Source: an uncultured Candidatus Saccharibacteria bacterium (GTDB lineage Bacteria > Patescibacteriota > Saccharimonadia > Saccharimonadales > JAGQNJ01). From it: 64,000 nt of DNA. Made by a program: the position numbers and the translations under genes. A model generated the notes under the pieces. The model worked only from the letters and a program-made list of their open reading frames with translations. It did no database searches and was not told the origin of the DNA. This document shows positions 5,435-58,753 of this stretch, piece by piece; position 1 is the first letter of the stretch, and every line of letters starts with the position of its first letter. Where the stretch lies: contig CAZBPY010000001.1 of the NCBI GenBank assembly GCA_964493895.1, positions 91,233 to 155,232 on the forward strand, given 5' to 3'.

Positions 5435-5845
5435 CTATTGCTTTTTCTTATCTAGCTTGTCCAGACGCAACCAGCGGAAAGTAAAGTAAATGATGGCCGC
5501 CGTGATAATGAAGTTAATCAGCACGAAAACAAACTGGCCCCAAGAAAATACGGCTGTATCGTTGCCGATAGTCAGCGAAAACTGCTGTCCGGTTAGGCTT
5601 TCGCCGCTGCCTAGCAACAGACCCAGCAAAGGATTTACAAAACTAGAGCTGAACTGATCGACTAACACCTTGGCTTGGGTGCCAATAATGAAACCAATCG
5701 CCAAGCCAACTACACCCTGGGTCCGGATAAATTCCACAAAGCCAGTGAATTGCTGACGGGTTTTGGCTTTGGCTTTGGCGGCCACTACTTTTCGTTTTGG
5801 CTGGGGTTGTTGGCCAGGACGTCTTCGAGGTCTATTTTCTGCCAT
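5435..5845 (-). CDS. mscL: Large-conductance mechanosensitive channel MscL with a basic N-terminal extension
   Basis: FVEFIRTQGVVGLAIGFIIGTQAKVLVDQFSSSFVNPLLG aligns to the MscL TM1/periplasmic-loop consensus. A second TM helix and a C-terminal basic tail are present. Confidence 0.85.
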   Translation of the reverse strand: MAENRPRRRPGQQPQPKRKVVAAKAKAKTRQQFTGFVEFIRTQGVVGLAIGFIIGTQAKVLVDQFSSSFVNPLLGLLLGSGESLTGQQFSLTIGNDTAVFSWGQFVFVLINFIITAAIIYFTFRWLRLDKLDKKKQ

Positions 5846-5854
5846 TTACCTCCC

Positions 5855-30227: not shown

Positions 30228-30319
30228 TGGCGGAGAGGGTGGGATTCGAACCCACGAGACCGCTTGCGCGGCCTGCTGGTTTTCAAGACCAGTTCCTTCA
30301 ACCACTCGGACACCTCTCC
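30228..30319 (-). tRNA. tRNA-Ser (anticodon UGA), CCA encoded
   Basis: Manual fold: GGAGAGG acceptor, anticodon arm CTGGT-CTTGAAA-ACCAG, long variable arm, GGTTCGAATCC T-loop, 3-prime GCCA. Confidence 0.9.
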
Positions 30320-30341
30320 TGGTGTCTGCTTCCAGGTATTA

Positions 30342-30437
<96 letters not shown>

Positions 30438-30502
30438 ATGTTGATGGCCTAGGACCTGGCTATTATAACAGAGAGGGAAGGGGAAATAAACTGACGGGGT
30501 TA

Positions 30503-30531
30503 TTGACATTTTATGAACCTTCGGGTATAAT
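30503..30531 (+). promoter_or_regulatory. Perfect consensus sigma-70 promoter (TTGACA - 17 nt - TATAAT)
   Basis: TTGACA 30503..30508, 17-nt spacer, TATAAT 30526..30531. The TTG start of the tracked ORF is the -35 hexamer itself. Confidence 0.65.
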
Positions 30532-30544
30532 GTTATTATTATTT

Positions 30545-30820
30545 ATGTCAGTACCAGAAACAAACACAGCACTAGAAGCACAAACCAGGGGTGAACGTTT
30601 TAAAAACGGAGCATTGGGACTTGGACTTTTAGCGGTCGGTGCCACAATGGCAGTTAAAAATGGACTAGAACTTCCAGAGTTTATTGACCTAGCCAATATG
30701 CACATAGATTCAGATGCGCCAGGTGCGCTGGGAACTTTTTTTGGTGCAGGCTCTGGCCTTGCATCTATGTCGCTTGGGCTACGGCGTTTAGCCCGAAATA
30801 ATCCTCAAGATCAAGCATAA
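30545..30820 (+). CDS. Small hypothetical Gly/Ala-rich membrane protein
   Basis: First ATG downstream of the consensus promoter (13 nt after the -10, no Shine-Dalgarno). 91 aa. Confidence 0.5.
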   Translation: MSVPETNTALEAQTRGERFKNGALGLGLLAVGATMAVKNGLELPEFIDLANMHIDSDAPGALGTFFGAGSGLASMSLGLRRLARNNPQDQA

Positions 30821-30857
30821 CCCCACTGTCATTAGCTTGATGTAGTACAATATTCTT

Positions 30858-31430
30858 ATGGCAGAGAGGGCTAAGCAGGATAAGTCGGCGCCGAAGAAGA
30901 CCGATCCTCAGGCGGATTGGCAGTATCAGGACGATACGCCAGCCCCTGCTGGCAATACCAGGTTTTCTGAAATAGACCCGGTTTCTTGGACAGCTTCAGA
31001 GTACATTGAACACGAAAAGTCGGCTGGCTGGTTTGTGAGATACGTGCTGGCGGTGATAGTTTTGGTTAGCTTAATTTTCTTGCTCACTCGGGAGTGGTTC
31101 TCGGTAATACTTACCTTTGCTTTAGCGGTGGTGTTTGGTATTTTTGCAGCTCGCAAGCCAACTGTTTTGCAGTATCACTTAGACAACCGCGGCGTTGTTA
31201 TTGGTCAAAAACTATATCCCATAAGCCTATTTAGGTCGTTTGCGGTAGTTGATGAAGGGGCTTTTCACTCAATCATACTGCTACCAATGAAGCGATTTAT
31301 GCCATCAATATCCATTTACTATGCCCCGGATGACGAAGCCGCCATACTGAACGCTTTTAGTCTGCTTTTGCCGCAGGAAACTCACCAACACGATGCCATT
31401 GACCGCTTGATGCACCGAATCCGATTTTAA
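30858..31430 (+). CDS. Hypothetical membrane protein (two TM helices followed by a small soluble domain)
   Basis: WFVRYVLAVIVLVSLIFLL and FSVILTFALAVVFGIFA helices. No confident family. Confidence 0.5.
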   Translation: MAERAKQDKSAPKKTDPQADWQYQDDTPAPAGNTRFSEIDPVSWTASEYIEHEKSAGWFVRYVLAVIVLVSLIFLLTREWFSVILTFALAVVFGIFAARKPTVLQYHLDNRGVVIGQKLYPISLFRSFAVVDEGAFHSIILLPMKRFMPSISIYYAPDDEAAILNAFSLLLPQETHQHDAIDRLMHRIRF

Positions 31431-31437
31431 AATCAGT

Positions 31438-31527
31438 CTAATAGACTATAAATTTTTGCCAAAATTCTCGTTTGTCTGTTTGTTTTTCCATATATTTATC
31501 GCTCTCTCGTGGAACTCTTTTTGACAT
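31438..31527 (-). CDS. Candidate small basic protein (29 aa), not in the ORF track
   Basis: GGAGGTGG Shine-Dalgarno directly upstream of tandem ATG ATG (31530/31527). Translation MSKRVPRESDKYMEKQTDKREFWQKFIVY, then TAG. Confidence 0.35.
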   Translation of the reverse strand: MSKRVPRESDKYMEKQTDKREFWQKFIVY

Positions 31528-31636
31528 CATCCACCTCCTACCCAAAAGCTTAAACAAGATGCTGCTGTCAAGCTGTAAAAAATTTCGCTAGAGGTGGCAG
31601 AGGCGTGCTATGCTATGTTTACAACTTGTAAAATCT

Positions 31637-32197
31637 ATGAAAGCCTTAGTTATTGCCGACCGAAACCCCCATCTGAACATTCCGGAATTTGTTAAGGAAC
31701 AAGTTGTTGATTTAGTTATAACCCTGGGAGATCTGACGCGAGAAGATATTCTGGGTCTTGAATCCACCCGCAATATACCCAAAATCGGTGTCTACGGCAA
31801 TCACGACAGCGGTCAATACATGGATGAGCTGGGAATAATCAATCTGCACCTGAAAACCTGGCAACTCGACGACCTAACATTTGGTGGTTTTGAGGGCTGC
31901 GTCCGCTATAAAGACAATCCTGACGCAATTATGTACACCCAGGACGAAGCCAATTCGCTAATGTCTAATTTCCCTTACGTTGATGTGTTTATTTGTCACT
32001 GCCCACCATACGGTATCAATGACGAACCGGACGAAGTTGCCCACCAGGGTTTTCATGCTTTACGCAATTATATCGATGCTCAGCATCCTAGGGTATTGTT
32101 GCACGGACACACCTATCCTGCCGATAGCAATCTGGCAACCCAGCACGGTTCAACCCGCATAGAATACGTTTTTGGTTACCGTGTGATTGAGCTTTAG
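31637..32197 (+). CDS. Calcineurin-like metallophosphoesterase
   Basis: MKALVIAD, GDL, GNHD, and GHTY(H) motifs in the canonical order. Start set to ATG 31637 because an extended -10 TGcTATGCT (31606..31614) overlaps the tracked start 31610. Confidence 0.8.
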   Translation: MKALVIADRNPHLNIPEFVKEQVVDLVITLGDLTREDILGLESTRNIPKIGVYGNHDSGQYMDELGIINLHLKTWQLDDLTFGGFEGCVRYKDNPDAIMYTQDEANSLMSNFPYVDVFICHCPPYGINDEPDEVAHQGFHALRNYIDAQHPRVLLHGHTYPADSNLATQHGSTRIEYVFGYRVIEL

Positions 32198-32490
32198 TAG
32201 TCAGTATTTTGCTGTCTCTGGCGGTGAGAGATTTCACCGAGGATTTGCTGGAAAGCCAAGAGTCTCTTCTGGGGGTCTGTGATTGATTTTGCGGCTGTTA
32301 TCGCCTCATTAGCAAGTGCATCATCCCACTCATCACGCAGTAAATCCATAGTCGCAAAAACTCGACTTTCCGGATCCTTCACCTGAGATATCAGGGGTTT
32401 TATTTCACTGGTAACCTGTTGTTTTAACTGATCCAGACTTGTGTTATTGTCAGTTGTTTGTTCGTCCATGACGCCCTCCGCTTTTTTCAT
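32194..32490 (-). CDS. Hypothetical helical protein
   Basis: ORF only. 4-nt overlap with the convergent upstream gene end. Confidence 0.4.
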   Translation of the reverse strand: MKKAEGVMDEQTTDNNTSLDQLKQQVTSEIKPLISQVKDPESRVFATMDLLRDEWDDALANEAITAAKSITDPQKRLLAFQQILGEISHRQRQQNTDY

Positions 32491-32630
32491 GTGTCAACCA
32501 TTACTTTAACAGCATAAAGGTAAACGAACAACGGGTATGATCCTGGTTTGTTAGAGTTCATTCACCTCTCTGCGCTAAAGGTTTTATTGGCGTGGTATGC
32601 TACATCTATGACACACGGAGGGGAGCTATC

Positions 32631-33050
32631 ATGAGCAGTATAAAAACTCTAGCCAACGACGCCAGCGTAGAGGGCTTCATAAACTCCGTGGACAGCGATA
32701 AAAAGAGAGCTGATGCTTATAAGTTATTGGAGATTTACAAGAAGGCCACCGGCGAGAAGCCGGTGATGTGGGGCTCTAGCATCATTGGTTTTGGCAAGTA
32801 TCATTATAAGTCTGAGCGAAGCCGGCAGGAAGGCGACTGGCCCCTGGCTGGCTTTTCGCCCCGCAAACAAAGCCTGACACTTTATGTCATGAATGAGGGT
32901 TTTAATTACGGCAATTTGCTTGACCGCTTGGGCAAACACTCGACCTCCAAAGCCTGCTTGTACATCAAAAAACTAGACGATGTCGATCTTAGTATCCTGG
33001 AGAAGCTGGTGAAACGCGCCTATGAAGACGCCAAAAGGATGCTGACATAG
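32631..33050 (+). CDS. DUF1801 (YdhG-like) domain protein
   Basis: VEGFINSV..KRADAYKLLEIYKKATGEKPVMWGSSIIGFGKYHYKSERSRQEGDWPLAGFSPRKQSLTLYVM matches the DUF1801 pattern. Start set to ATG 32631, preceded by GGAGGGGAG. Confidence 0.75.
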   Translation: MSSIKTLANDASVEGFINSVDSDKKRADAYKLLEIYKKATGEKPVMWGSSIIGFGKYHYKSERSRQEGDWPLAGFSPRKQSLTLYVMNEGFNYGNLLDRLGKHSTSKACLYIKKLDDVDLSILEKLVKRAYEDAKRMLT

Positions 33051-33187
33051 CAAGAAGAATGGAAGAGACCCGCACATCAAGCGTGGTACGGTGCGCGGTA
33101 GTAAAAGAAGTTCAAGCAATGGCCACCAAGTTGCTTATGTTTGTTAATGCTTATAGTTAGTAGATGCCCCCTTGATATACTTAGAAT

Positions 33188-33826
33188 ATGGTTTTACCAA
33201 GCTACACCGGAACTAAAGAAAATTCACTGACAAGATCAGAAGGTGTAGCACTTACCCTTGAGCTTGGTGCTGCACATCACGGTGATGATTACCATAATGC
33301 CGATGCATTTGGTCGAGTATTACATTTTGGAGGCGTGAATTATCTTGAAGCAGAAAGAGACCGAGACCCCGGCGCATTCGCCGGTAAAGTAGAAAGACAA
33401 ATTGAGGAGCTAAAAGAGATAGTTGCGCCTCATATCGGCAAATGGGCTGCCGCAAAGCATAGGATGCTAGGTGTAGATAATGATGGGGGCTGGGAGTTAT
33501 GGGAACGGCTATTTGATAGGTCTAAAGTTATGCATACGAGCGGCATTATTCTTGGTGTAGCAGGTGTAAAAATGGAAAGGTGTATGCACTTTGATCATGA
33601 TTATCCGAATGAAGTTGCTAAAGCAAGGGTGAGTTCGTGGCGAGGCGGCGCTTATAAGATAGGTGTTTTATTAGATACAACTCACACAACCCCTTACTTC
33701 AGTTACCGAGTTGAAGCTCCTGGCACCAACAGAATGCTTGTTCCTGTACGAGGTTTCCCAAGACACAGAAAGTCGTTTAGCGGCCTATGGTCTTGGCAGC
33801 TAAGTGGCTTTGATAAGCGGGACTAA
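33188..33826 (+). CDS. Hypothetical protein (module 1 of the tRNA-Arg-linked array)
   Basis: 212-aa ORF bounded by junction motifs at 33084 and 33892. No recognised domain. Confidence 0.5.
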   Translation: MVLPSYTGTKENSLTRSEGVALTLELGAAHHGDDYHNADAFGRVLHFGGVNYLEAERDRDPGAFAGKVERQIEELKEIVAPHIGKWAAAKHRMLGVDNDGGWELWERLFDRSKVMHTSGIILGVAGVKMERCMHFDHDYPNEVAKARVSSWRGGAYKIGVLLDTTHTTPYFSYRVEAPGTNRMLVPVRGFPRHRKSFSGLWSWQLSGFDKRD

Positions 33827-33840
33827 TACGCTACCGCCAA

Positions 33841-33898
33841 AACACCAAACCGGATTCAAACTCATTTCAATCTCTATCTGTAATTACCTCGTGGTACA
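33841..33898. repeat. Degenerate, internally deleted copy of the 110-bp tRNA-Arg-flank repeat
   Basis: AACACCAAACCGGATTCAAACTCATTTCAA...CTGTAATTACCTCGTGGTACA aligns with both ends of the 110-bp repeat, including the terminal TGGTACA. Confidence 0.55.
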
Positions 33899-33924
33899 CG
33901 GTAGTAAAAGGGGTAAGAGCCTTA

Positions 33925-34317
33925 CTATTGACTGCTTGATGCCTTAATTGCTTTGATGACTGCTGCAGATTCGCTAAGTATTGAAGCAATGACCGGTTCG
34001 TCAATAGTATTGGCAGCCTCGGCGATATCACCAACCAAAGCATGTCTACCTTTGCTGTATTCAACAAACCTGATTGCTGGCGAAGGAGTCTCAGACAAAA
34101 TTTCCATTAAGTGATGCCAGGCACTAGTCGCATCCTGAGGGTTACTAATCTTAAAGTCGGTGAGAGTTAGAATGTCTTCTTGGGTTTCATCACATAGCCG
34201 TGAAAATGCCTGTCGCTCTTCTAGCTTCACTCTCATTCGGTCTTCTGCCTGGGCGATTTCCTCAACCTGATTGCCTATAATTTCAGCTCGTTGCTCAATC
34301 ACTGTCGCAATTCCCAA
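33925..34317 (-). CDS. Hypothetical protein (module 2), possibly 5-prime truncated
   Basis: The tracked start is a TTG. The same frame stays open for 43 more codons upstream with no ATG or GTG, up to a stop at 34447..34449, about 20 nt from repeat copy 1. Confidence 0.4.
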   Translation of the reverse strand: MGIATVIEQRAEIIGNQVEEIAQAEDRMRVKLEERQAFSRLCDETQEDILTLTDFKISNPQDATSAWHHLMEILSETPSPAIRFVEYSKGRHALVGDIAEAANTIDEPVIASILSESAAVIKAIKASSSQ

Positions 34318-34467
34318 TAAGCCAACCCTACGTGCCGTGAATGCAACATCAAAGTATGGTTTTTGGGCGTATGCTATATCCCAAGCAAGTCCTTCGTCAG
34401 CTCTTAAATCTTCTGGATTTTCAGCTATGTGTAAATTATCAGTAATTTATAGAGCCAGCGCAAGCAC

Positions 34468-34577
34468 AAGCAAAACACCAAGCAGGAATCAAACTCAATT
34501 TAAAGTGTTAATTTCCAGCCATCAAAAAAGAGATTGAAAATGGCTTCAATCCCTACCTGTAATTTCACTATGGTACA
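34468..34577. repeat. 110-bp direct repeat, copy 1 (identical to 35684..35793)
   Basis: Base-for-base identical to copy 2 by manual comparison. Ends in TGGTACA, the complement of the tRNA-Arg 3-prime terminus. Carries the hairpin GATTGAA-N6-TTCAATC plus a T-run (minus-strand sense). Confidence 0.9.
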
Positions 34578-34603
34578 GCACAATTTACGAGGTTAGAACT
34601 ATT

Positions 34604-35113
34604 TTAGCTAGCTAATGGTTGGTGGCGATAATTTTGATTATAGTCTTCTGCTAAGCGCAGGATGTCTATTGGCCCTTCATCAGAAGCATATATTCCATAT
34701 GTGGATTCAACTAGTTTTTGCAAGTGATTACCGTCAAAACTAAAGGCTGTATCTACAATGTGCTGCATTGCGTCCTCATGTGGTTGGGTGAAATCAAAAG
34801 TAGGCGGGTGGGTAAGCACAACGTGTCCTGTAAATGAATCTCTTGTGACAGAATAACTTAAATTGGCTTCTGTTCCGTAAAGCTCTTCAGCGAAAGCAAC
34901 AAGATCTGGAGCAAATCTAGATAACCTCCAGGGCACATCAGTAATCGTAGCGCCTGTTTCAATTGCCGACTTCCAGTCTGCTAGATAAATAAGGCGGCCC
35001 AGCACTCTAATCTCAGTTGGATCGAGTTTTGGAGCCTCAATAAATCCATCTGTCATTCTATGAGCAACCGAGTTAAGTATTTCTCCATTCCCAGTAGGTG
35101 GCGCCCTAAACAT
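34604..35113 (-). CDS. Hypothetical protein (module 3)
   Basis: 169-aa ORF. The segment RLIYLADWKSAIETGATITDVPW faintly resembles Panacea/SocA-like (DUF4065) domains, but I cannot support that call. Confidence 0.45.
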   Translation of the reverse strand: MFRAPPTGNGEILNSVAHRMTDGFIEAPKLDPTEIRVLGRLIYLADWKSAIETGATITDVPWRLSRFAPDLVAFAEELYGTEANLSYSVTRDSFTGHVVLTHPPTFDFTQPHEDAMQHIVDTAFSFDGNHLQKLVESTYGIYASDEGPIDILRLAEDYNQNYRHQPLAS

Positions 35114-35124
35114 ATATACAGCTT

Positions 35125-35153
35125 AACAAAAAAGACTCTCAATGAAAGTCTTT
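35125..35153 (-). terminator. Rho-independent terminator-like hairpin between modules 4 and 3
   Basis: Minus-strand sense: AAAGACT - 9 nt - AGTCTTT, followed by TTTTG. Confidence 0.45.
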
Positions 35154-35216
35154 AGAAACGTTTATGTTTGGTACACAAGGCAGTAAAAGAAGTTCAAACG
35201 TTACTAGTACGCATTA

Positions 35217-35615
35217 CTACGGCTGCTGCCTAACGCCCAAATAATAATTATCAGCGCCGACCGCCCCATGCCATTCGGCTTTGCGAATTTCGGCAAGCTC
35301 TTCTTGAAGCTGTCTCCTTGCTCTGGGGCTTAAAGCTGCACCTGGGATTGACTCTAGTGTAGGTGGCTCGCTTCTCCAGGCCGGCATTCCGCCAGGGAGA
35401 TTCTTGCCCCTTACTATATGTTTGCCTGCTAGAAAAATGTTGAACGCCTCAGTTCTATCGTGGGGTACCTGCAATACATCGGCAAATTCTCGCATAGCAG
35501 CATTTAATTCTGTACGTTCATTTTCTGGTCCCAGTAATGCAATGGCTGCTAGGTGATGAATAGTCTTTACGTCATTATTACCGACCTCAACAGGTGGCTC
35601 AAAATCGTATGCCAT
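35217..35615 (-). CDS. Hypothetical protein (module 4)
   Basis: The tracked start 35714 lies inside repeat copy 2 (the tRNA-Arg terminator region), so the first internal ATG (35615, MAYDFEPPVEV) is preferred. The start remains uncertain. Confidence 0.45.
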   Translation of the reverse strand: MAYDFEPPVEVGNNDVKTIHHLAAIALLGPENERTELNAAMREFADVLQVPHDRTEAFNIFLAGKHIVRGKNLPGGMPAWRSEPPTLESIPGAALSPRARRQLQEELAEIRKAEWHGAVGADNYYLGVRQQP

Positions 35616-35683
35616 TCCGTCTTGTTCAAAGTGGGCGATTTGCACATTTTTATTATGGTTGAATGAATATGTTTTGCAAGGAT

Positions 35684-35793
35684 AAGCAAAACACCAAGCA
35701 GGAATCAAACTCAATTTAAAGTGTTAATTTCCAGCCATCAAAAAAGAGATTGAAAATGGCTTCAATCCCTACCTGTAATTTCACTATGGTACA
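35684..35793. repeat. 110-bp direct repeat, copy 2 (overlaps the last 7 nt of tRNA-Arg and contains its terminator)
   Basis: Identical to 34468..34577. Hairpin GATTGAA (35748..35754) / TTCAATC (35761..35767), followed on the minus strand by TCTTTTTTG. Confidence 0.9.
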
Positions 35794-35863
35794 CCCGACA
35801 GGATTCGAACCTGTGGCCTCCGGCTCCGCAAGCCGACGCTCTATCCAGCTGAGCTACGGGTGC
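35787..35863 (-). tRNA. tRNA-Arg with anticodon GCG (not the usual bacterial ACG), CCA encoded
   Basis: Manual fold: GCACCCG-TA-GCTC-AGCTGGATA-GAGC-G-TCGGC-TTGCGGA-GCCGG-AGGCC-ACAGG-TTCGAAT-CCTGT-CGGGTGT-ACCA. The body resembles E. coli tRNA-Arg(ACG). Confidence 0.85.
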
Positions 35864-35938
35864 AAGTTGGTTGCTTGCGCAACAGGGGTAATTTTAGCAT
35901 GGTACAGATGTGATTACCAGTGTAGAATGGAGGTGCGC

Positions 35939-36030
35939 GGAGAGGTGCAGGAGTGGTTGAACTGGCCGCTCTCGAAAAGCGGTAGGCCGTTTTCGCGGTC
36001 TCGTGGGTTCGAATCCCACCCTCTCCGCCA
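35939..36030 (+). tRNA. tRNA-Ser (anticodon CGA), CCA encoded
   Basis: Manual fold: anticodon arm CCGCT-CTCGAAA-AGCGG, long variable arm. The 3-prime 36 nt are identical to those of tRNA-Ser(UGA). Confidence 0.9.
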
Positions 36031-36231
36031 GGTTATTGTCTACCTAAAGGATCGACGTCCGAAGCGCGTAGTTCCTTTATGGGCTATTCCAGCCAATCTC
36101 TGCCGGTTACCATCTTCGATACATGGTCTTGGCCATAATCGATCGAGGTCTTCACGCCTGTTTTGGCGACGTTTTGGCTTCCTTATTGTAGAAAATTTGT
36201 GCTCTTCTGTTCAGATGCTATAGATGTATAC

Positions 36232-36260
36232 TTGTCTTTTTCGCTAATCTATGCTATAAT
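36232..36260 (+). promoter_or_regulatory. Sigma-70 promoter (TTGTCT - 17 nt - TGcTATAAT)
   Basis: TTGTCT 36232..36237, 17-nt spacer, extended -10 TGc TATAAT ending at 36260. It lies 30 nt upstream of ATG 36291. Confidence 0.6.
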
Positions 36261-36290
36261 CAAAGATGTTAGAAGCAAAAACTCAAACAC

Positions 36291-37181
36291 ATGACAGAAA
36301 AAGAGCCAGGCAAAAACAGTGAACAAGCTAACCAGAGTGGTGGTTTACCCGAGGTTGTTAACTTTGAGAGACCGCTTCGTACACCTGATGAACTGATGGA
36401 GGCCTTGGGTGCGCCGGCTATAGCACAGTCTGGCGGCGATGTCACCCCGGTACCAGAGACCAAGGCTAGTGATACAATAGCTGCCGCTGAGGTACAAAGT
36501 GGTGTGGATCCTGACCTAAGGACGCTGATTGAAAACCCTGACGCTCTGAGCCCAAAGGAGCGTCAAAGAATTGTTGAAAAAGCCGAGGTGCAAGCTGCTT
36601 GGGAATCTGCCAAACACCGAGTGGTTGTTATGGACAAGACTGGGCAACCATATTGGGGGGCAGAATTTCCATCAGTGTTTGCCTTTAATGGTCAGATGCG
36701 CGGCAAATTCGGTCGTGTCCCTAAGGATCGTGACAAGTGGACACCTGGCATGCAAGCCGCTGGTCTTTCCGGAGAACGCGCCATGGGCGGGGCCTACAAC
36801 ACTGTGATAATTGCGTTCGACGATGGAGAAAAAGTAGTGGTACGTAAGAAAAATGAGGCCATTAGCGCCGATGCCCAGCAATTCGAAATCATCTCAACTT
36901 CGCGAAGTCGCAAAAATGGCGAGATAAGTCGTGAAGATTTGCCGTCTGAGCTGCTGGATGGCGTGATTGTCGTTCCTGGCGAGCCACTGGTGCTTGGCGC
37001 TGATGCCAGCGGTAAGCGAATGCGTTCTAGGGGATTGGTCACTAAAATTACGGCCATGGAACATGATGACAACGGTTTAGTCCCAAGCAACCATCCTCAT
37101 TTACAGAAAGCTGAGAAGCAACGCAATACCTTAAATGACTTCAGGGCTGATCTCGTAGAAGCCACAGGAAGGACAGCATAA
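36291..37181 (+). CDS. Hypothetical protein (first gene of a two-gene module next to tRNA-Ser)
   Basis: 296-aa ORF with no recognised domain. Its stop lies 2 nt before the next start. Confidence 0.5.
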   Translation: MTEKEPGKNSEQANQSGGLPEVVNFERPLRTPDELMEALGAPAIAQSGGDVTPVPETKASDTIAAAEVQSGVDPDLRTLIENPDALSPKERQRIVEKAEVQAAWESAKHRVVVMDKTGQPYWGAEFPSVFAFNGQMRGKFGRVPKDRDKWTPGMQAAGLSGERAMGGAYNTVIIAFDDGEKVVVRKKNEAISADAQQFEIISTSRSRKNGEISREDLPSELLDGVIVVPGEPLVLGADASGKRMRSRGLVTKITAMEHDDNGLVPSNHPHLQKAEKQRNTLNDFRADLVEATGRTA

Positions 37182-37183
37182 TT

Positions 37184-38143
37184 ATGGGTGAGAAGATGGC
37201 ACACGACACCGATCCAGCTAACGGTGCCCTCCAGCCAGAAGCTGCCATTGACGATTTAGAGTCGGCAATTAATCAGCAGATCGAACTGGCAATAAAATCT
37301 GGTGAGCTTATTGTTGATGAATCTGGTGAACCTCAGTACGGATTTGCCCCTAGCGGTGAGCGTTCACAGTTGCCCGTTCGAGAGTGGGCCATGGTGCGCA
37401 CCGAAGGATTCAAACAGTGGTTTGGCGACTGGCAGTCTGACCCAGAAAATGCTTCGAAGATGGTTGATGAAAATGGTGAACCAAAATTGTTTTACCATGG
37501 CACACACCGTGAGTTTGACGACTTCGATCCTTTGGCACCAAGCGTTACCGCTGACCCGGGAATAAACGATGAAGCAAGTTATTTCACTGATAACCTTGAC
37601 CAGGCTAAACTTTATGCTCAGCACCTGCGCCAGGAAGGTAAGGAGCTTGTTCAACATCTTGCTCGTCAGATTGCTAATCAGGAGCATGCTCCAAAGGAGA
37701 TTGGCACGGTTTGGAATGAATTCATGTCTGCTCTGGCCGCTGGCAACTATAGCGAAGATGATGGACTTGTTACTGTCGCCTTGAATAACCAGGGTCATGA
37801 TTATAGGTTGTCCGGTGATGCCACGGAGTTGGAGGTGTTCTTCAATGGCAAATTACCGACCGCCGAAAATCCGGTTGAGCTAACTCCAAGCGGCAAGTAT
37901 ATGATGCCGGGCTCAATGGTTGCTGAGCCGAAAGTTGTATCGGTTTTTATTAATGCTCGAGATTTGAAACAAGGTCAATCGGCTGCTAACACTTTTGATC
38001 GTAAGTTTATGGAGCTTCTGGATCAAGAGGGTGATGCTGTGCTCGTAGATGTTGCCGGCTGGGGAGATCAACGACCAGCTCAACATATGGCGGCCGTAAA
38101 AGACCCAAGCAAAGTCATGATCGTTGGCTCGCAAGTTGTTTAG
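37184..38143 (+). CDS. Putative polyvalent-protein-type ADP-ribosyltransferase-like (ART-PolyVal-like) domain protein
   Basis: VRTEGFKQWFGDWQSDPENASKMVDENGEPKLFYHGTHREFDDFD...EASYFTDNLDQAKLYAQ matches my memory of the FKxWFGDS..DENGxP..YHGT..F..F...YFT...A..YA pattern in phage and conjugative-element polyvalent proteins. Not verified by search. Confidence 0.45.
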   Translation: MGEKMAHDTDPANGALQPEAAIDDLESAINQQIELAIKSGELIVDESGEPQYGFAPSGERSQLPVREWAMVRTEGFKQWFGDWQSDPENASKMVDENGEPKLFYHGTHREFDDFDPLAPSVTADPGINDEASYFTDNLDQAKLYAQHLRQEGKELVQHLARQIANQEHAPKEIGTVWNEFMSALAAGNYSEDDGLVTVALNNQGHDYRLSGDATELEVFFNGKLPTAENPVELTPSGKYMMPGSMVAEPKVVSVFINARDLKQGQSAANTFDRKFMELLDQEGDAVLVDVAGWGDQRPAQHMAAVKDPSKVMIVGSQVV

Positions 38144-54306: not shown

Positions 54307-54982
54307 GTTTATAGCTGCAATCGTTAATCACCCAATTCGCACTGCTGTAGTGGTGATTCTAATAATCGGTGGTTTTGCGGCTTGGCGGTTCTGGCCTCGT
54401 TACTACAACCTAAGCATTGAGGTTGAGACATCAGTGCCGGGCTATGAGGTGCAGGTGTTTAGTGGCGCTTCGAATGATTCAGGTGAGCCGATTGTTAAAA
54501 CGACTGAAAGCCAGACTTTCTCCTTAAGATCTGGGGAGTACGTGGTCGTTGGCGGCACAGCGCCGGATTTTTCTCCCACAAGCCAGACAATTGCTTTAAA
54601 CGAAGATATATCGATCAGTACCAGACCGGTCTACTCGGATTTGAAGCTATCTAACATGCTAGACAGCGAGCTGCCAGCTATCCAGCAAGCCATACGTTCG
54701 TCCGTCTCAGGGTTTAGCGATGAATACAAACTTGGCCGAGGGCGTCTGTACGATCTTGGTCAATGGTACGGCACAATCATTTACCCGAATCTTTCGGCCG
54801 AGCAGTTGAGGGTTCAATACGTCGATGTTTTTCGCCTGGTGATGAAAAAGGAAGGGGGTAAGTGGACTCTAGCCACTAACCCACCTAGACTTGTTCTTGG
54901 TCAGCCCAATTATCCCAACATTCCATTTGAAGTCTTAAATAATACCAACAACCAACTGTTGCCGGGTGCTAACTCAGACTGA
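54299..54982 (+). CDS. Membrane-anchored hypothetical protein (last gene of the T4SS-like operon)
   Basis: Start set to GTG 54299, 6 nt after AGGAGG (54287..54292). TM helix TAVVVILIIGGFAAW. It has a beta-rich domain resembling that of the preceding gene. Confidence 0.55.
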   Translation: MNRFIAAIVNHPIRTAVVVILIIGGFAAWRFWPRYYNLSIEVETSVPGYEVQVFSGASNDSGEPIVKTTESQTFSLRSGEYVVVGGTAPDFSPTSQTIALNEDISISTRPVYSDLKLSNMLDSELPAIQQAIRSSVSGFSDEYKLGRGRLYDLGQWYGTIIYPNLSAEQLRVQYVDVFRLVMKKEGGKWTLATNPPRLVLGQPNYPNIPFEVLNNTNNQLLPGANSD

Positions 54983-56042
54983 TTAGCCTTGTGCTGCGAG
55001 TAAAGCGCTTGCTGACTACATCAGCGTCAGTGGTTGTAATGAAGCTTTGGTAGTTCCGTATGAAGGCCGTAAGAGCTTTGCGGCGTTTGCCGTCTAGTTC
55101 GCTAAAGACATCGTCCAGCAATAATAGAGGTTTTTGGTCGCGGTGTTCTTCTAGTAGTTGGGTTTCTTGGACCTTCAGGGCCAGCAGGGTGGTCCGAGTC
55201 TCACCCCTAGAGGCATGGTGATAAATCGGGATTTTATTTATCTCAATAGCGATATCGTCTCGGTGCGGGCCGATGCCGGTAAAGCCGCGAGCTAGGTCTT
55301 TTTCTAGTGATTTTTCAAGTTTTTTTAACATTTGGCTGGCATACTGAGAGGGGGCCAACGTTGACAAATATGACAGGGTAACTTGATGCTTTTTGTCGGC
55401 TAGCTGGCTGTAGCTGTGGCTTATTCCCCGGTTAAGTCTATTCAACAAAGCGTGGCGTTTGGCAGCAATTTGCCCGCCCAAGTCGCTTAGACGGATGTTC
55501 CAGGCAAATATTGATTCCTTAGCAGCCGAGGTTCCGGTTTTTAACAACCGGTTGCGTTGAGCCAAGACCCGGTTATAATCACGTTGTTGGCGACTGAACT
55601 CCGGGTGGGTTTGGCTTAGAATCGAATCGATAAATTGCCGCCGGCGTTCCGGAGAAGTGGTTAAGGACTGAAGGTTGTCTGGCTCAAATAAAACCACCGG
55701 GATAGTGTCCTCGAGGCCGAGCCGTTTTTTAGGATAATCGTCAATAATAAATTCTTTGCGGACAACTTCATTTCCAGACGCAGCGGTGTCTAGTTGCAAT
55801 TTTATGATCCGGGTTTGGTTAGTGGCCGTAGCGCCGTCTAGGCGGGCCCAGGTGGCTTTGTAGCGAATATTTTCACGGTCTAGGGCTCGAAATGGTGAGC
55901 CGATGCAGATATAGACCAAGCCTTCTAAAATATTGGTTTTACCGCTGGCGTTGGGACCAATAATAATATTAACACCGTCATTGAATTCAAAAGAGGCATC
56001 CTTATATGAGCGAAAATTCTGCAGCCGCAGACTGGAAATCAT
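54969..56042 (-). CDS. recF: DNA replication/repair protein RecF
   Basis: LRLQNFRSYKDASFEF..GVNIIIGPNASGKTNILEGL (Walker A). Signature LLLLDDVFSELD. Confidence 0.92.
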   Translation of the reverse strand: MISSLRLQNFRSYKDASFEFNDGVNIIIGPNASGKTNILEGLVYICIGSPFRALDRENIRYKATWARLDGATATNQTRIIKLQLDTAASGNEVVRKEFIIDDYPKKRLGLEDTIPVVLFEPDNLQSLTTSPERRRQFIDSILSQTHPEFSRQQRDYNRVLAQRNRLLKTGTSAAKESIFAWNIRLSDLGGQIAAKRHALLNRLNRGISHSYSQLADKKHQVTLSYLSTLAPSQYASQMLKKLEKSLEKDLARGFTGIGPHRDDIAIEINKIPIYHHASRGETRTTLLALKVQETQLLEEHRDQKPLLLLDDVFSELDGKRRKALTAFIRNYQSFITTTDADVVSKRFTRSTRLISLS

Positions 56043-56063
56043 ATCTATCTTAGTTTAGCAGCC

Positions 56064-57161
56064 CTAACTCTTTAGCGGCATGACTATGTGAACATAATCC
56101 GGCTGCTGGGGGCTTCTTAGGGCGACTGGTTGAAGCTTTTCATTAAAACCGATTGTTACTGTCTCACCGTCCAGAGCATTGATAGCATCCAGCAAAAAGC
56201 GGGCGTTAAGTGTAATCTCGCCGTCAGCGGTGACTTTGGCACTACTGCTGGCGGTGTTCTCACCAATTTGTGAGGCTACTGATTGGATGTCGAGGGTTTG
56301 CTTTTCCTGGTTGGTGCGGACGATGATGCTGCCGGCGCTGGCTCGGGCAAATAGGCTGGAAACTTTAGTGATGGAAATTAGTTCGGTTTTTGGCAAGGTA
56401 GCCTCGACAGCAAATTCAGTTGGAATCAGCTTTTGATAAGCCGGATATTCACCTTCTATCAGCCTGGCGATTAGCTCTGTATCAGCCGTTTCAAAGCGAA
56501 CCTGTTGAGAGTCTTGGGTGATGTTAACCTGGCTTGATTCGTTGGCATCACTAATTATCCGCAAAATGTCATGAGCGGCTGTAGCCGGCAGGATGAAAGG
56601 CTCCATCTTTTTACCGTTGGCTAGCTTTTTCTCAGCCAGTCGGTAACTGTCGGTAGCGGCTATGTAGAGGTTGTTATCAACAGTTTGGAAAAAGACTCCG
56701 GTTAGAACTGGCCGGGCCTCATCGGTCGACGCAGCCACTACGACTTGTTGAATGGCCGACTTCAGTTGGCCAGCGCTGATTTTCCAGTTTTGGCCGTTTT
56801 TAATAACTGGCATGACCGGAAACTCTTCGGCACTAATTCCATTAATGGTTGAATTGTGGTTTTCGGTGGTTACGTGAAGTTTGTTATCCTCTTGTTTTAA
56901 GCGAATAGTGGTATCGGGCAGGTTGGCCACAAAATCTTGCAGCAAGCGGGCGGGTATAGTCAGAGTTCCGGGTTTGCTAACTTTAGCGCCAACTAGGGTG
57001 TTAATGGCGATGTCTAAATTTGTAGCGGACAGACGAAGTTGATTGTTGTCAACATTTAGTAAGATGTTACTCAGTACCGGCAGGGTACTTTTGTTAGTGG
57101 CAACCCTGGCGACAATGGCTAGGGCTTTGTGAAGATTAGCTTGGGTGACTTTAATATCCAT
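56064..57161 (-). CDS. dnaN: DNA polymerase III beta sliding clamp
   Basis: 365 aa with the typical three-domain clamp pattern (LPVLSNILL, ATDSYRLA, PDYVHIVMPLK). Confidence 0.93.
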   Translation of the reverse strand: MDIKVTQANLHKALAIVARVATNKSTLPVLSNILLNVDNNQLRLSATNLDIAINTLVGAKVSKPGTLTIPARLLQDFVANLPDTTIRLKQEDNKLHVTTENHNSTINGISAEEFPVMPVIKNGQNWKISAGQLKSAIQQVVVAASTDEARPVLTGVFFQTVDNNLYIAATDSYRLAEKKLANGKKMEPFILPATAAHDILRIISDANESSQVNITQDSQQVRFETADTELIARLIEGEYPAYQKLIPTEFAVEATLPKTELISITKVSSLFARASAGSIIVRTNQEKQTLDIQSVASQIGENTASSSAKVTADGEITLNARFLLDAINALDGETVTIGFNEKLQPVALRSPQQPDYVHIVMPLKS

Positions 57162-57394
57162 AATTATTAAAACCTTTCTTTAAATTCCTTATTTCATTAA
57201 TTAAGCCTGTGGGTTGTGTGTAAAAAGTTGATTTAACAGTGGCCAGTTCGACCAGATCGGTTGTGTAAAAAGCCCGGAAAAAACTGTCTAAAAGCTTGGC
57301 ATTTTCAAAACCTGAAACTTGGCAAAGCCACAAACCTTCCACAAAAAACTGACGGCTTTTACGCACCATTTCCACAACCAAAACACAAATATTT
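57162..57394. other. dnaA-dnaN spacer with DnaA-box-like 9-mers (second part of a candidate bipartite oriC)
   Basis: TGTGTAAAA at 57217..57225 and 57262..57270, both inside a repeated GGTTGTGT(GT)AAAAAG motif. ATTTCCACA at 57368..57376. cCTTCCACA at 57335..57343. AT-rich. Confidence 0.5.
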
Positions 57395-58753
57395 TTAAGC
57401 ATACAACCGCCCTTTTATATCGTTAAGCGCTGATTTCACAAGGTTGTCAACCGCGGCCTCGCGCTCGATTTTATCAACCGAGTGAATAGCCGTAGTGTGA
57501 TCTTTGCGACCCAGCTCCTTAGCAATTTTAGGAAAACTCAGATGCAACTCACTGCGCATCAAATACATAGCCACTTGGCGCGGCAGAACAATGTCCTTAT
57601 CACGTTTAGGACCGAGTATTTCATCAACAGATACCGAGAAGTACCTGGCGGTTCGCTCGACAATTTGTTTTGGTGAAATATGCTTAGGGCGGGACCGATG
57701 CGAACCAAGAACCGATTTAGCCAGCGGAACATCCGGATCGACACTCTTTACTTCACAGACGGCAATTAGCTGGTTCAAGGCCCCCTCTAGTTCACGAATA
57801 TTATTTCGAAGATTGTTAGCCAAAAACTCGACCACGTCAGTTGGCAGCTCCATACCTTGGGCGGCGGCCTTGGTCTGGACAATCGCACAACGGGTTTCGT
57901 AATCAGGAATTTGCATGTCAACGCTCATGCCCTGCATAAAGCGCGATTTCAACCGGTCCTCCAGACCATCAATTTCATTGGGCGGCCGGTCGCTGCTGAT
58001 GATTATTTGTTTATTAGCCTGTTGAAGTGCATTGAAAGTGTGAAAGAATTCCTCTAGAGTTTTCTCTTTGCCGGCAAAAAACTGAACATCGTCGATTATC
58101 AAAACATCGCTAGACCGATAAAAGTTAGCAAATTCGGTGTTCTTTTTATAGCGCACCGCATCGATGAATTCTTGGGTGAACTGTTCACTGGTCACATAGG
58201 TAACTTTAGACTTTGGGTTTTTTTCCAAAACAGCGTTGCCAACAGCCTGCATCAGATGAGTTTTGCCGATACCGACTCCGCCATAAAGTGATAGCGGGTT
58301 ATATTTTGTTCCCGGACTGGCCGCTGCACCCTGGGCTGCAGCATAGGCCAGTTCGTTACTAGATCCGACCACAAAATTTTCAAAAGTAAAGTTTTCCCTT
58401 AACCCCTGCCGATAAGAATGAGCCAGACTGTTAGTTTTCGGACCAGCAGCAGCTTTAGCTTCTGGCAGCATCACCACGTCATCGGAGATTTTCTGATTGG
58501 TTTTAGGTGTCGGCACACCTTTGTACTGAATTTGTTTGGGCTTTACCCCTTGATTCGCTAGAGCCTCCAGAATTAAAGGTTTGAACTTCAATTCAAGTTG
58601 CTGAGAGATAAACACATTCGGTACACCAATTACCAAAGTTTCTTTGTCATAGCGCAGCAACTGAGTGTTCTTAAACCAAGTAGAAAAATTTCCGGCTGAA
58701 ACCGAGAGCTCTATTTCGCCGAGGACGGCTTGCCAGAGGCGGTCGTCATGCAT
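57395..58753 (-). CDS. dnaA: Chromosomal replication initiator DnaA
   Basis: AAA+ Walker A GGVGIGKTHLMQA. Box VII/sensor motifs. C-terminal DNA-binding helix DHTTAIHSVDKI. Confidence 0.96.
   Translation of the reverse strand: MHDDRLWQAVLGEIELSVSAGNFSTWFKNTQLLRYDKETLVIGVPNVFISQQLELKFKPLILEALANQGVKPKQIQYKGVPTPKTNQKISDDVVMLPEAKAAAGPKTNSLAHSYRQGLRENFTFENFVVGSSNELAYAAAQGAAASPGTKYNPLSLYGGVGIGKTHLMQAVGNAVLEKNPKSKVTYVTSEQFTQEFIDAVRYKKNTEFANFYRSSDVLIIDDVQFFAGKEKTLEEFFHTFNALQQANKQIIISSDRPPNEIDGLEDRLKSRFMQGMSVDMQIPDYETRCAIVQTKAAAQGMELPTDVVEFLANNLRNNIRELEGALNQLIAVCEVKSVDPDVPLAKSVLGSHRSRPKHISPKQIVERTARYFSVSVDEILGPKRDKDIVLPRQVAMYLMRSELHLSFPKIAKELGRKDHTTAIHSVDKIEREAAVDNLVKSALNDIKGRLYA

Follow-up and report, generated by a model that had tools for sequence, protein, structure and literature searches.

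A tRNA-anchored array of small single-gene cassettes with a perfect 110-bp repeat in a Saccharibacteria genome

Known tRNA-anchored islands and the layout of the array

In tycheposons, successive integrations at one tRNA gene push older elements inward and leave partial tRNAs behind (bioRxiv 10.1101/2020.12.28.424599). Besides the tycheposon islands of Prochlorococcus, tRNA-anchored islands that grow by repeated site-specific integration include the ssrA islands of Dehalococcoides (PMC3146451) and the tandem accretion with cis-mobilizable elements (CIMEs) described in streptococci (PMC5704250). The locus discussed here lies in a stretch of 64,000 nt (the window) that belongs to a Saccharibacteria (TM7) genome, and by analogy its closest known counterpart is a tRNA-anchored accretion island, tycheposon-like or CIME-like, in a miniature and integron-like form. 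As in such islands, the array is anchored at a tRNA 3′ end, its content varies among close relatives, older units lie further from the tRNA, and the cargo is of accessory or defense type; its units may likewise be split by direct repeats resembling the tRNA end, and, as in CIMEs, they have no integrase of their own. The differences are that the units measure merely 0.6–0.8 kb, with one gene and its own promoter, that an integrase-bearing member was seen at none of the loci, and that the end sites share a conserved 29-nt motif, 5 nt longer than the real tRNA end, instead of being simple copies of it.

The array spans 2.7 kb (33084–35793) and comprises four small single-gene cassettes on the tRNA strand, behind a tRNA-Arg gene with anticodon GCG that anchors it (35787–35863, minus strand; predicted by ARAGORN and matched by the Rfam tRNA model at 68 bits). 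An Rfam scan over 32900–36300 returned two tRNAs and nothing else. The array is co-oriented with the tRNA and immediately 3′ of it, and the same is true of loci retrieved from other genomes (L017, L025, L021, L046, and L019). Each cassette is built of a short leader with a predicted promoter, one ORF, and an end site of about 29 nt. In the promoters the motif TTRTGCTTGC serves as −35, and the −10 lies merely 5–7 nt before the start codon; transcripts from them may be leaderless. The end site, GTTYKAAC-N15-GYACCA, is found 1–17 nt past the stop codon and resembles the T-loop-to-CCA end of tRNA-Arg, which in tRNA-Arg(GCG) reads ...GGTTCGAATCCTGTCGGGTGTACCA. In the window, TGTACCA alone matches the tRNA end exactly; the sites are 29-nt look-alikes of a 24-nt tRNA end.

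All of the end sites are on the minus strand. Site b (GTTTGAACTTCTTTTACTGCCTTGTGTACCA, type II, 35169–35199) lies 17 nt after the gene 1 stop codon, and it also follows the gene 1 homolog in L017 (10516–10544) and in L046. Site c (GTTCTAACCTCGTAAATTGTGCTGTACCA, type I, 34571–34599) lies 4 nt after the gene 2 stop codon; L025 has three instances of its motif, which is present in L021, L017, and L023 as well. Site d (GCTCTTACCCCTTTTACTACCGTGTACCA, type II, 33892–33920) lies 4 nt past the gene 3 stop codon, while site e (GCTTGAACTTCTTTTACTACCGCGCACCGTACCA, type II with a 5-nt insertion, 33084–33117) marks the distal array end, abutting a convergent DUF1801 gene that ends at 33050. The sequence GTGTACCA has only three occurrences across the 64 kb, each of them intergenic, on the minus strand, and at most 1.9 kb from the tRNA, and CTGTACCA is found at the fourth junction. 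The type II core, CTTTTACTRCC, has exactly three occurrences, each inside the array. A regular expression for the site gave seven matches in 229 kb vs. 0.22 in shuffled sequences, a count drawn from about six lineages with a definition partly derived from the counted instances; all seven are on the coding strand, 1–17 nt past a stop codon. An HMM built from five sites added instances behind the NDT-like gene of L017 and behind a gene of L023; no such sites were seen at other Saccharibacteria loci with the same tRNA-Arg. RNAalifold predicted 0 pairs for seven sites with their flanks. A role for the site as a tRNA-like mRNA 3′ end was dropped for want of predicted structure, and a Xer/dif-type module was set aside because the sites are in direct orientation and show no dyad symmetry by eye.

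With integrons and CALINs the locus shares a one-orientation array of single-ORF cassettes of about 0.5–1 kb. A short recombination-site-like sequence just past each cassette’s stop codon, and a fixed anchor at which new cassettes presumably join, are integron-like; an array with no integrase nearby is CALIN-like. Unlike integron sites, however, those of the array have no predicted hairpin and no R″/L″–L′/R′ symmetry, the cassettes carry promoter-like boxes of their own, and the anchor is a tRNA gene instead of an attI next to intI, with no IntI found. Assignment as an integron was set aside because attC hairpins, intI, and an attI/Pc region were not recognized in the array. The cassette ORFs had no match in Pfam, NCBIfam, PHROGs, or PADLOC. 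Pfam likewise returned no integrase or recombinase domain in the array or in the 29 window ORFs scanned, and for L017 and L019 the precomputed Pfam calls within 10 kb include none. If it belongs to the tRNA-anchored islands, the array would therefore have to be a non-autonomous member, in the manner of CIMEs, that is mobilized in trans.

The perfect repeat and the two-cassette unit

Three of the four cassettes open with a module of about 100 nt, R, that carries a rho-independent terminator. Two copies, both on the minus strand (right copy, 35684–35793; left copy, 34468–34577), agree at 110 of 110 positions with a start-to-start spacing of 1216, which confirms the exact direct repeats reported in a preliminary description of this DNA. 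The similarity extends 8 nt further leftward with two mismatches (34460/35676; 118 nt, 98%), and a chance origin is impossible for a perfect repeat of 110 nt. The right copy contains, in order, the last 7 nt of the tRNA (TGTACCA), a hairpin (35770–35745) with a T-run, an AT-rich spacer, and the block GAGTTTGATTCCTGCTTGGTGTTTTGCTT, which runs into the −35-like TTGCAA of gene 1. The tRNA overlap had been noticed before and agrees with the ARAGORN boundaries; these 7 nt are the conserved end of the cassette-end sites, and the left copy starts with the last 7 nt of site c. In both copies the hairpin AGGGATTGAAGCCATTTTCAATCTCT is followed by TTTTTT (34554–34529 in the left copy), and its 11-pair stem, 4-nt loop, and T-run are those of a rho-independent terminator, as expected from the earlier placement of the tRNA terminator inside the repeat. 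Because it contains this terminator, R would terminate the upstream tRNA or the previous cassette and lead into the next promoter. In this role the left copy would serve gene 2 as terminator and gene 3 as leader.

The terminator hairpin is kept in L017 and L046, where single-side changes preserve the pairs (e.g., G-C to G-U). The whole of R also folds strongly, on the sense strand only (−32.1 kcal/mol, z −3.9), with two compensatory pairs relative to L017. A conserved whole-R structure is nevertheless not claimed, because L046 disrupts the outer stem and covariation contributes an unfavorable term; the terminator hairpin alone is conserved. As a terminator that leads into a promoter and recurs before unrelated genes, R is like the intergenic terminator-promoter modules that spread by homologous recombination or gene conversion. 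L030 has a comparable pair of 65-nt modules, each with a hairpin and TTGACA-17-TATAAT, ahead of successive small genes. Modules of this class are not normally linked to a tRNA 3′ end, however, nor do they come with a conserved site on the far side of the gene.

Among the loci retrieved, R-type sequences were seen solely in the window, L017/L018, and L046, and R anchors gave 0 matches in a metagenome scan. The tRNA-proximal copy is ancestral, since R and gene 1 stand directly behind tRNA-Arg in the window and in L046 and are displaced in L017 by two newer cassettes. Orthologous R sequences follow tRNA-Arg in L046 and precede the gene 1 homolog in L017. The left copy is then the derived one, in line with its earlier reading as a displaced duplicate of the tRNA flank. 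The two copies show 0/110 differences vs. 79–82% identity to the orthologous R of L017, a contrast that speaks for the very recent event proposed before.

The 1216-bp unit corresponds exactly to the first two cassettes: R, gene 1, and site, then leader, gene 2, and site. The two ORFs and the internal terminator described between the copies were found again, at 34604–35113 and 35217–35714 and as a computed terminator-like hairpin in the gene 2 cassette leader (35131–35153, minus strand). The proposal that recombination between the repeats could delete or excise this unit is supported. Its location at a tRNA 3′ end and its flanking direct repeats are what would be expected of the ordinary attL and attR of a prophage or ICE, and the repeats alone might recall a transposon target-site duplication. 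However, the segment has 1.1 kb and two small cargo genes, with no integrase, transposase, replication, or structural gene and no terminal inverted repeats, and 110 bp far exceeds the length of a target-site duplication. Phage, plasmid, and viral collections contained no relative of R, the array, gene 1, gene 3, or the site; searched in viral contigs, the 3′ 23-mer of tRNA-Arg matched mainly phage tRNA-Arg(TCT) genes and gave no information. A classical prophage, ICE, or transposon origin, already contradicted by gene content and repeat length, was set aside as very improbable.

The repeat might also be a product of assembly, in which R and a 1.1-kb loop in a de Bruijn graph were threaded once while the truth was two strains, or an empty chromosome together with a free or tandem 1216-bp unit. 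The assembly is of the metagenome type, and all three configurations yield an identical graph. The Logan contig L024 (SRR9016294) ends exactly 30 nt into the left R, as expected in a k=31 graph, and therefore a branch at R exists in that sample; moreover, the exact products of genes 1 and 2 are unrecorded in Logan, whereas that of gene 3 is recorded. On the other side, ordinary reads and inserts are longer than a 110-bp repeat, which assemblers normally resolve with direct read support, and the junction of site c with R must be present in some real molecule. Arrays with repeated junctions also occur in independent assemblies (L017, L025, and L030), and a 1.2-kb circle would lack any replication function. 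We hold an assembly product to be improbable, with a word of caution: this block of 1216 bp may be polymorphic, or the assembly may have mis-threaded it.

Cassette genes and a decayed third copy of R

Gene 1 (35217–35645, minus strand) encodes 142 aa from a GTG start, placed at MQI by alignment with P0003–P0008. The tracked ORF, 35217–35714, adds 23 spurious codons read out of R, and its TTG at 35714 lies inside the repeat, so the suspicion that this start was made fortuitously by the repeat proved right. The annotation is corrected to GTG 35645 because five of six homologs start at MQI or MNI, equivalent to this codon, and because an in-frame TAA closes the upstream extension in L046. A promoter-like TTGCAA-16-CATAAT precedes the gene (35679–35652). 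Its AF2 model is poor (pLDDT 45), too poor for a structure search.

Gene 2 (169 aa, 34604–35113, minus strand) is a probable distant relative of proteins with the SocA/Panacea antitoxin domain. The gene 2 product had no Pfam match at E ≤ 0.1, and a word-indexed search returned only itself, but exhaustive phmmer gave 67 matches, linking it to the family at E values of 1e-34 to 1e-4. PF13274 matches 20 of 25 aligned sequences (gene 2 and 24 homologs; best E 2.3e-14), gene 2 itself having no direct match. No toxin partner is evident next to it.

Gene 3 (33925–34428, minus strand) has 167 codons and encodes a helical protein, as delimited by alignment with P0009, P0011, P0012, and P0014. It had been described as decapitated, its frame remaining open and start-free above TTG 34317. 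The frame does extend without a stop to 34446, which is 21 nt from the repeat, and this extension contains no ATG, GTG, or TTG. Decapitation itself is contradicted: codon conservation with full-length homologs is complete from TTG 34317 up to codon 34428, an ATA occupies 34428 precisely where these carry their ATG start, and the upstream sequence and −10 region are homologous in L023 and L021. In the AF2 model (pLDDT 85; no PDB fold match) the N-terminal helix is integral to the fold. The lesion is thus a single-base loss of the start codon, not truncation by an insertion, and the annotation becomes 33925–34428 with a mutated start codon. Homologs of gene 3 sit in different arrays, with differing neighbors and site types.

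A third, decayed copy of R, copy A, lies at 33838–33899 (minus strand; blastn 85% and 74%, with E values of 2e-4 and 0.009 within 6 kb). It retains both ends but has lost some 47 nt between them, and in its 5′ part (GGTAATTACAGATAGAGATTGAA) it resembles the R of L046 and L017 more than it does the two perfect copies. The body of the fourth cassette behind it (33118–33837) has no intact ORF on the array strand, and an opposite-strand ORF of 212 aa (33188–33826) had no family match. Paralogy between 33097–33473 and 35179–35555, suggested by a repeat-family signal, was rejected, as blastn and tblastx were negative and the short site motif alone was shared.

Copy A, a diverged R paralog within the same array, bears on whether anything was inserted at all: if cassettes 1 and 3 both had paralogous R-type leaders beforehand, the tRNA-proximal R could recently have overwritten the older leader of gene 3 by gene conversion, leaving 110 identical nt. 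Lower-identity homology flanks the perfect tract, with 6/8 nt matching at 34460–34467 and site c aligning with the tRNA 3′ end. In L023, gene 3 has a native 5′ boundary (GTTTTGGTTGTGCTTGC) that already agrees with the final ~12 nt of R. Nevertheless, a pre-existing R before gene 3 is an assumption, because the homologs in L021, L023, and L025 have no terminator-bearing R upstream, and with no older R present conversion would have only very short anchors, of 7 nt and about 17 nt. Gene conversion without insertion seems to us unlikely.

Arrays in other Saccharibacteria and a proposed history

Saccharibacteria, like other CPR bacteria, have tiny genomes, and gene exchange among them is poorly understood. 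The sites, R, and the cargo of the window are conserved in other Saccharibacteria genomes, where they occur in differing order and behind tRNA-Arg(GCG), tRNA-Arg(TCG), and tRNA-Lys. In the syntenic L017, tRNA-Arg(GCG) is followed by a 19-bp perfect duplicate of its 3′ end, an NDT-like cassette, a TIR cassette, and a site–R–gene 1–site segment that is 79% identical to 35169–35798 of the window over 631 nt. In L046, R, gene 1, and a type II site directly follow the tRNA-Arg 3′ end. The unit of R, gene 1, and site thus takes the tRNA-proximal position in the window and L046 and the third position in L017. Neither L017 nor L046 has gene 2, gene 3, or cassette 4, and the NDT-like and TIR cassettes are found in L017 only. 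L025, the one locus returned by a metagenome scan for gene 3 relatives, has tRNA-Arg(TCG) and then three single-gene cassettes, each closed by the same site, with TTATGCTTG after the sites of cassettes 1 and 2. A gene 1 homolog lies in the tRNA-Lys array of L019, where the tRNA-Lys 3′ end recurs at the junctions in copies of 21 nt and 10 nt. In seven Saccharibacteria loci a copy of the tRNA 3′ end is found 84–185 nt downstream, and perfect tRNA-end duplicates of 16–21 nt occur in the relatives L008, L014, L017, L019, and L013. The cargo of the arrays is of accessory or conflict type, including Panacea-like, TIR, NDT-like, Zeta/AAA_33-like, and GIY-YIG proteins.

These arrangements are best explained, with a probability of roughly 60%, by a tRNA-anchored four-cassette array in which an R-led two-cassette block recently joined a tRNA–R–gene 3 arrangement. 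The array would grow and reshuffle as the 3′ end of the tRNA and the tRNA-like sites recombine, with newer units entering next to the tRNA and older ones being displaced outward. Very recently, the block would have met a tRNA–R–gene 3 arrangement from the same population, joining it by site-specific recombination at ...TGTACCA or by RecA-type recombination within R, and leaving two identical R copies now able to delete or excise the block. The sequences show the anatomy and, in other genomes, the conservation and varying order of sites, R, and cargo, whereas the mechanism, its direction, and an enzyme encoded elsewhere than nearby are what we infer; site-specific recombination, homologous recombination, and gene conversion are inseparable here because no recombinase was found in cis. 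Counting against the recent joining of the block, exact-protein look-ups of gene 2 and the 142-aa gene 1 and a metagenome pattern scan retrieved no empty site or circle junction, and the perfect identity of R, which extends over 103 nt of flank, takes in just 7 nt of the tRNA itself. Classical att duplications at tRNAs lie inside the tRNA, and in this the repeat, nearly all in the flank, also departs from tycheposon and CIME islands. The single insertion envisaged in the preliminary description stands as far as a duplicate of the tRNA flank is concerned; it was incomplete in treating as a one-off scar what is one junction of a four-cassette array, and in that gene conversion or an assembly loop gives the same picture.

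A broader reading, which we put forward as tentative and on balance doubtful, is an undescribed integron-like system in some Saccharibacteria. The 3′ ends of tRNA-Arg and tRNA-Lys would be its fixed insertion points and promoter-bearing single-gene cassettes, each with a site of about 29 nt mimicking the tRNA end, its mobile units. An unlinked recombinase, or competence and RecA acting on short junctions, would insert, excise, and shuffle conflict-system cargo, with the 110-bp repeat as a very recent footprint. The locus swaps cassettes of 0.6–0.8 kb among relatives. If confirmed, the 29-nt site would be a concrete, searchable signature of the flexible gene pool of Saccharibacteria, co-occurrence would offer a route to the responsible recombinase, and the locus would be a natural landing pad for genetic tools in the now-transformable Saccharibacteria.

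The cassette array behind tRNA-Arg

The 110-bp repeat R, a spacer combining a terminator and a promoter, occurs at 34468-34577 (left copy) and 35684-35793 (right copy). As the preliminary description held, the copies match at 110/110 positions and lie 1216 bp apart; similarity reaches 8 nt further left if two mismatches are allowed. The right copy takes in the last 7 nt, TGTACCA, of tRNA-Arg(GCG), which ARAGORN places on the minus strand at 35787-35863, and both copies contain a terminator-like hairpin with its T-run. The listed ORFs around the repeat and an extra terminator between the copies (35153-35131) were likewise recovered. A decayed third copy at 33838-33899 retains both ends and lacks the middle.

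A two-gene block flanked by repeats at a tRNA, as the finding was first put, is ordinary; the point of interest is the miniature cassette system behind the repeat. R is one junction of a multi-cassette array spanning 33084-35793. Read in the tRNA sense, each gene of this array is followed, 4-17 nt past its stop codon, by an end site of about 29 nt that starts like a T-loop (GTTYKAAC) and finishes like a tRNA (GYACCA). These sites, all on the minus strand, are b (35199-35169), c (34599-34571), d (33920-33892), and e (33117-33084); they can be aligned with one another and with the real tRNA end, and are 5 nt longer than the latter. The 64 kb contain GTGTACCA at only three places, every one on the array strand, intergenic, and at most 1.9 kb from the tRNA, and the core of the type II sites (b, d, and e; c is type I), CTTTTACTRCC, has exactly three occurrences, all inside the array. 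Because sites b and c close each gene, the 1216-bp unit is exactly two whole cassettes, one consisting of R, gene 1, and site b, the other of a terminator-bearing leader, gene 2, and site c. The fourth cassette (33118-33837) is either decayed or inverted; it has only ORF fragments on the array strand, and an opposite-strand ORF (33188-33826, 212 aa) has no match in Pfam, NCBIfam, PHROGs, or PADLOC.

Cassette genes and the start of gene 3

Gene 1 (35217-35645, minus strand) has homologues, five of six of which open with MQI or MNI, placing its start at GTG 35645; L046, a related contig, has an in-frame stop upstream of this start. The longer frame tracked earlier (35217-35714) does begin fortuitously, with 23 extra codons read out of R. 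Gene 2 (34604-35113, minus strand) appeared orphan-like in a word-indexed search, and exhaustive phmmer returned 67 relatives. The SocA/Panacea antitoxin domain is matched by 20 of 25 aligned sequences (gene 2 and 24 homologues), with no toxin partner for gene 2 evident. Its closest homologue (45% identity; contig L047, features at 5822-5850 and 6385-6400) is an inserted lone gene with radA on one side and a PBP gene on the other; a canonical-length tRNA 3′-end look-alike, GGTTCAATTCCTTCCATCCCCACCA, lies ahead of it, and TAGGTTCAAT is repeated on either side.

Gene 3 (33925-34428, minus strand), next to the left copy of R, had been thought to have lost its 5′ end, a claim that the homologues contradict. 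P0009, P0011, P0012, and P0014 have Met exactly at the window's ATA (34428-34426), all 37 codons from 34428 down to TTG 34317 are conserved in the homologue alignment, and homology to two relatives' loci, L023 and L021, extends upstream over the −10 region and the TTGTGCTTGC motif. The defect is a single-base change, ATG to ATA, which an independent Logan contig, L024, shares. Gene 3 may be silent, start at ATA, or yield an N-terminally shortened protein. In its AlphaFold model (pLDDT 85), residues 18-40 form an integral helix; public annotation starts the product at an internal GTG and gives it 125 aa.

The same pieces in other Saccharibacteria

The order of the cargo genes, the tRNA ahead of them, and the type of end site all vary from locus to locus. 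L017 (GCA_034520885.1) is syntenic with the window (HIT, HTH-HAD, ComF, Hsp20, and pilin genes), and behind its tRNA-Arg(GCG) come, in order, a perfect 19-bp duplicate of that tRNA's 3′ end, an NDT-like cassette, a TIR cassette, a 30-nt site, an R homologue, a homologue of gene 1, and a site of type II. The unit formed by the last four (site-R-gene 1-site) shares 79% identity with window 35169-35798 across 631 nt. L046 begins within a tRNA-Arg 3′ end, the last 28 nt being those of the tRNA-Arg(TCG) of L025, and runs straight into R, followed by gene 1 (85% aa identity) and a type II site. This order marks R-gene 1 adjoining tRNA-Arg as the older arrangement and the left copy of R in the window as derived.

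The pattern is purest in L025, a JGI contig, where tRNA-Arg(TCG) precedes three single-gene cassettes within 1.6 kb. All three end in GTTCTAAC...TGTACCA, TTATGCTTG directly follows the sites of cassettes 1 and 2, and cassette 3 holds a gene 3 homologue. The same end site also lies behind genes in L021, L023, and L017, and an end-site regular expression, itself partly derived from these instances, matched 7 times in 229 kb of fetched DNA versus 0.22 in shuffles. In L019, tRNA-Lys(CTT) heads an array that includes a gene 1 homologue and has copies of the tRNA-Lys end at its junctions. Seven Saccharibacteria loci carry a same-strand copy (13-16/16) of a tRNA's last 16 nt, 84-185 nt downstream (tRNA-Arg in L006, L007, L008, L014, and L017; tRNA-Ser in L013; tRNA-Lys in L019). 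The window is assigned to Saccharibacteria (TM7) by exact tRNA matches in species-representative genomes, none of which is a close relative.

The downstream tRNA-end copy encloses a mini-insert, usually carrying a terminator. L019 and L017 have tRNA 5′-end copies upstream as well, and in L017 a small ORF, GIY-YIG-like by eye, sits between this relic and the tRNA. In the window, the promoter region that separates tRNA-Arg from tRNA-Ser(CGA) (35888-35927) contains GTAATTTTAGCATGGTACAG, which matches the tRNA 3′-end junction GTAATTTCACTATGGTACAC at 75%; the tRNA-Arg gene is thus bracketed by similar 20-mers. As RNA, R (35684-35793, minus strand) folds far better than shuffles on the sense strand only (−32.1 kcal/mol, z −3.9; opposite strand, z −0.5), its two ends pairing around the terminator. 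This putative fold has two compensatory pairs relative to L017, yet the stem is broken in L046. Another Saccharibacteria contig, L030, carries two intergenic modules of about 65 nt (165-215 and 800-865), roughly 88% identical and analogous to R, each preceding one of successive small genes and comprising a hairpin, AACTCCTGCCGGAGTT, then a consensus TTGACA-17-TATAAT promoter; the contig also has a GIY-YIG gene and a Zeta/AAA_33-like gene.

Possible mechanism and genomic surroundings

The array's anatomy and its reshuffling are shown; the mechanism is inferred. The array pattern fits successive recombination at the tRNA 3′ end, in which older units would have been displaced and tRNA-like partial sites left between them. 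That mode of growth, with displaced older elements and leftover partial tRNAs, is described for tycheposon islands (bioRxiv 10.1101/2020.12.28.424599), and the same pattern is reported for ssrA islands (PMC3146451) and CIME accretion (PMC5704250). The locus works like such a tRNA-anchored accretion island. Autonomous tRNA-integrating elements are defined by an integrase, whereas this locus has none. No recombinase was found in the array, among 29 window ORFs scanned, or near the L017 and L019 arrays, so any site-specific enzyme would have to act in trans. The scale and layout also resemble an integron array; membership was rejected, since the sites form no hairpin, IntI is missing, and the cassettes bring promoters of their own. 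The literature searched, of incomplete coverage, holds no description of such arrays in Saccharibacteria, which is weak evidence of novelty.

The two R copies are identical though orthologous R is only about 80% identical, and the event is therefore very recent, as originally proposed. A conspecific two-cassette block beginning with R may have joined a tRNA-R-gene 3 chromosome, through either a site-specific exchange at ...TGTACCA or homologous recombination inside R; gene conversion that copied R over an older R-like leader of gene 3 is another candidate source of this identity. Recombination between the two copies could now remove the 1216-bp block. Logan contig L024 matches 33344-34497 with 100% identity and breaks off precisely 30 nt inside R, the behaviour expected of a k=31 graph at a repeat. 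The break establishes that R has two left contexts in that sample, and fits an integrated copy, two strains, or an empty site plus loop alike. The exact gene 1 and gene 2 products are not on record in Logan, and a metagenome pattern scan retrieved no alternative configuration of R or the 1216-bp unit.

Relative to the conserved flanks (HIT ... ComF, Hsp20), the tRNA-Arg/tRNA-Ser(CGA) pair and array occupy opposite ends, in opposite orientation, of the segment bounded by a tRNA-Ser(GCT/TGA) pair in the window (30228-36030) and L017 (7292-16033). Segment content is fully different between the two, the gene 1 unit excepted; the entire stretch between the tRNAs is variable and subject to rearrangement. 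Past the tRNA pair on its other side, the DNA likewise looks acquired: just beyond tRNA-Ser(CGA) a gene at 37184-38143 encodes a 319-aa protein with an ART-PolyVal domain, an ADP-ribosyltransferase domain found in polyvalent proteins from phages and conjugative elements; this protein also matches a 2900-residue PHROG. Genes resembling recF, dnaN, and dnaA lie at 54969-58753, and since they mark the probable replication origin, the array lies some 20 kb away from it.
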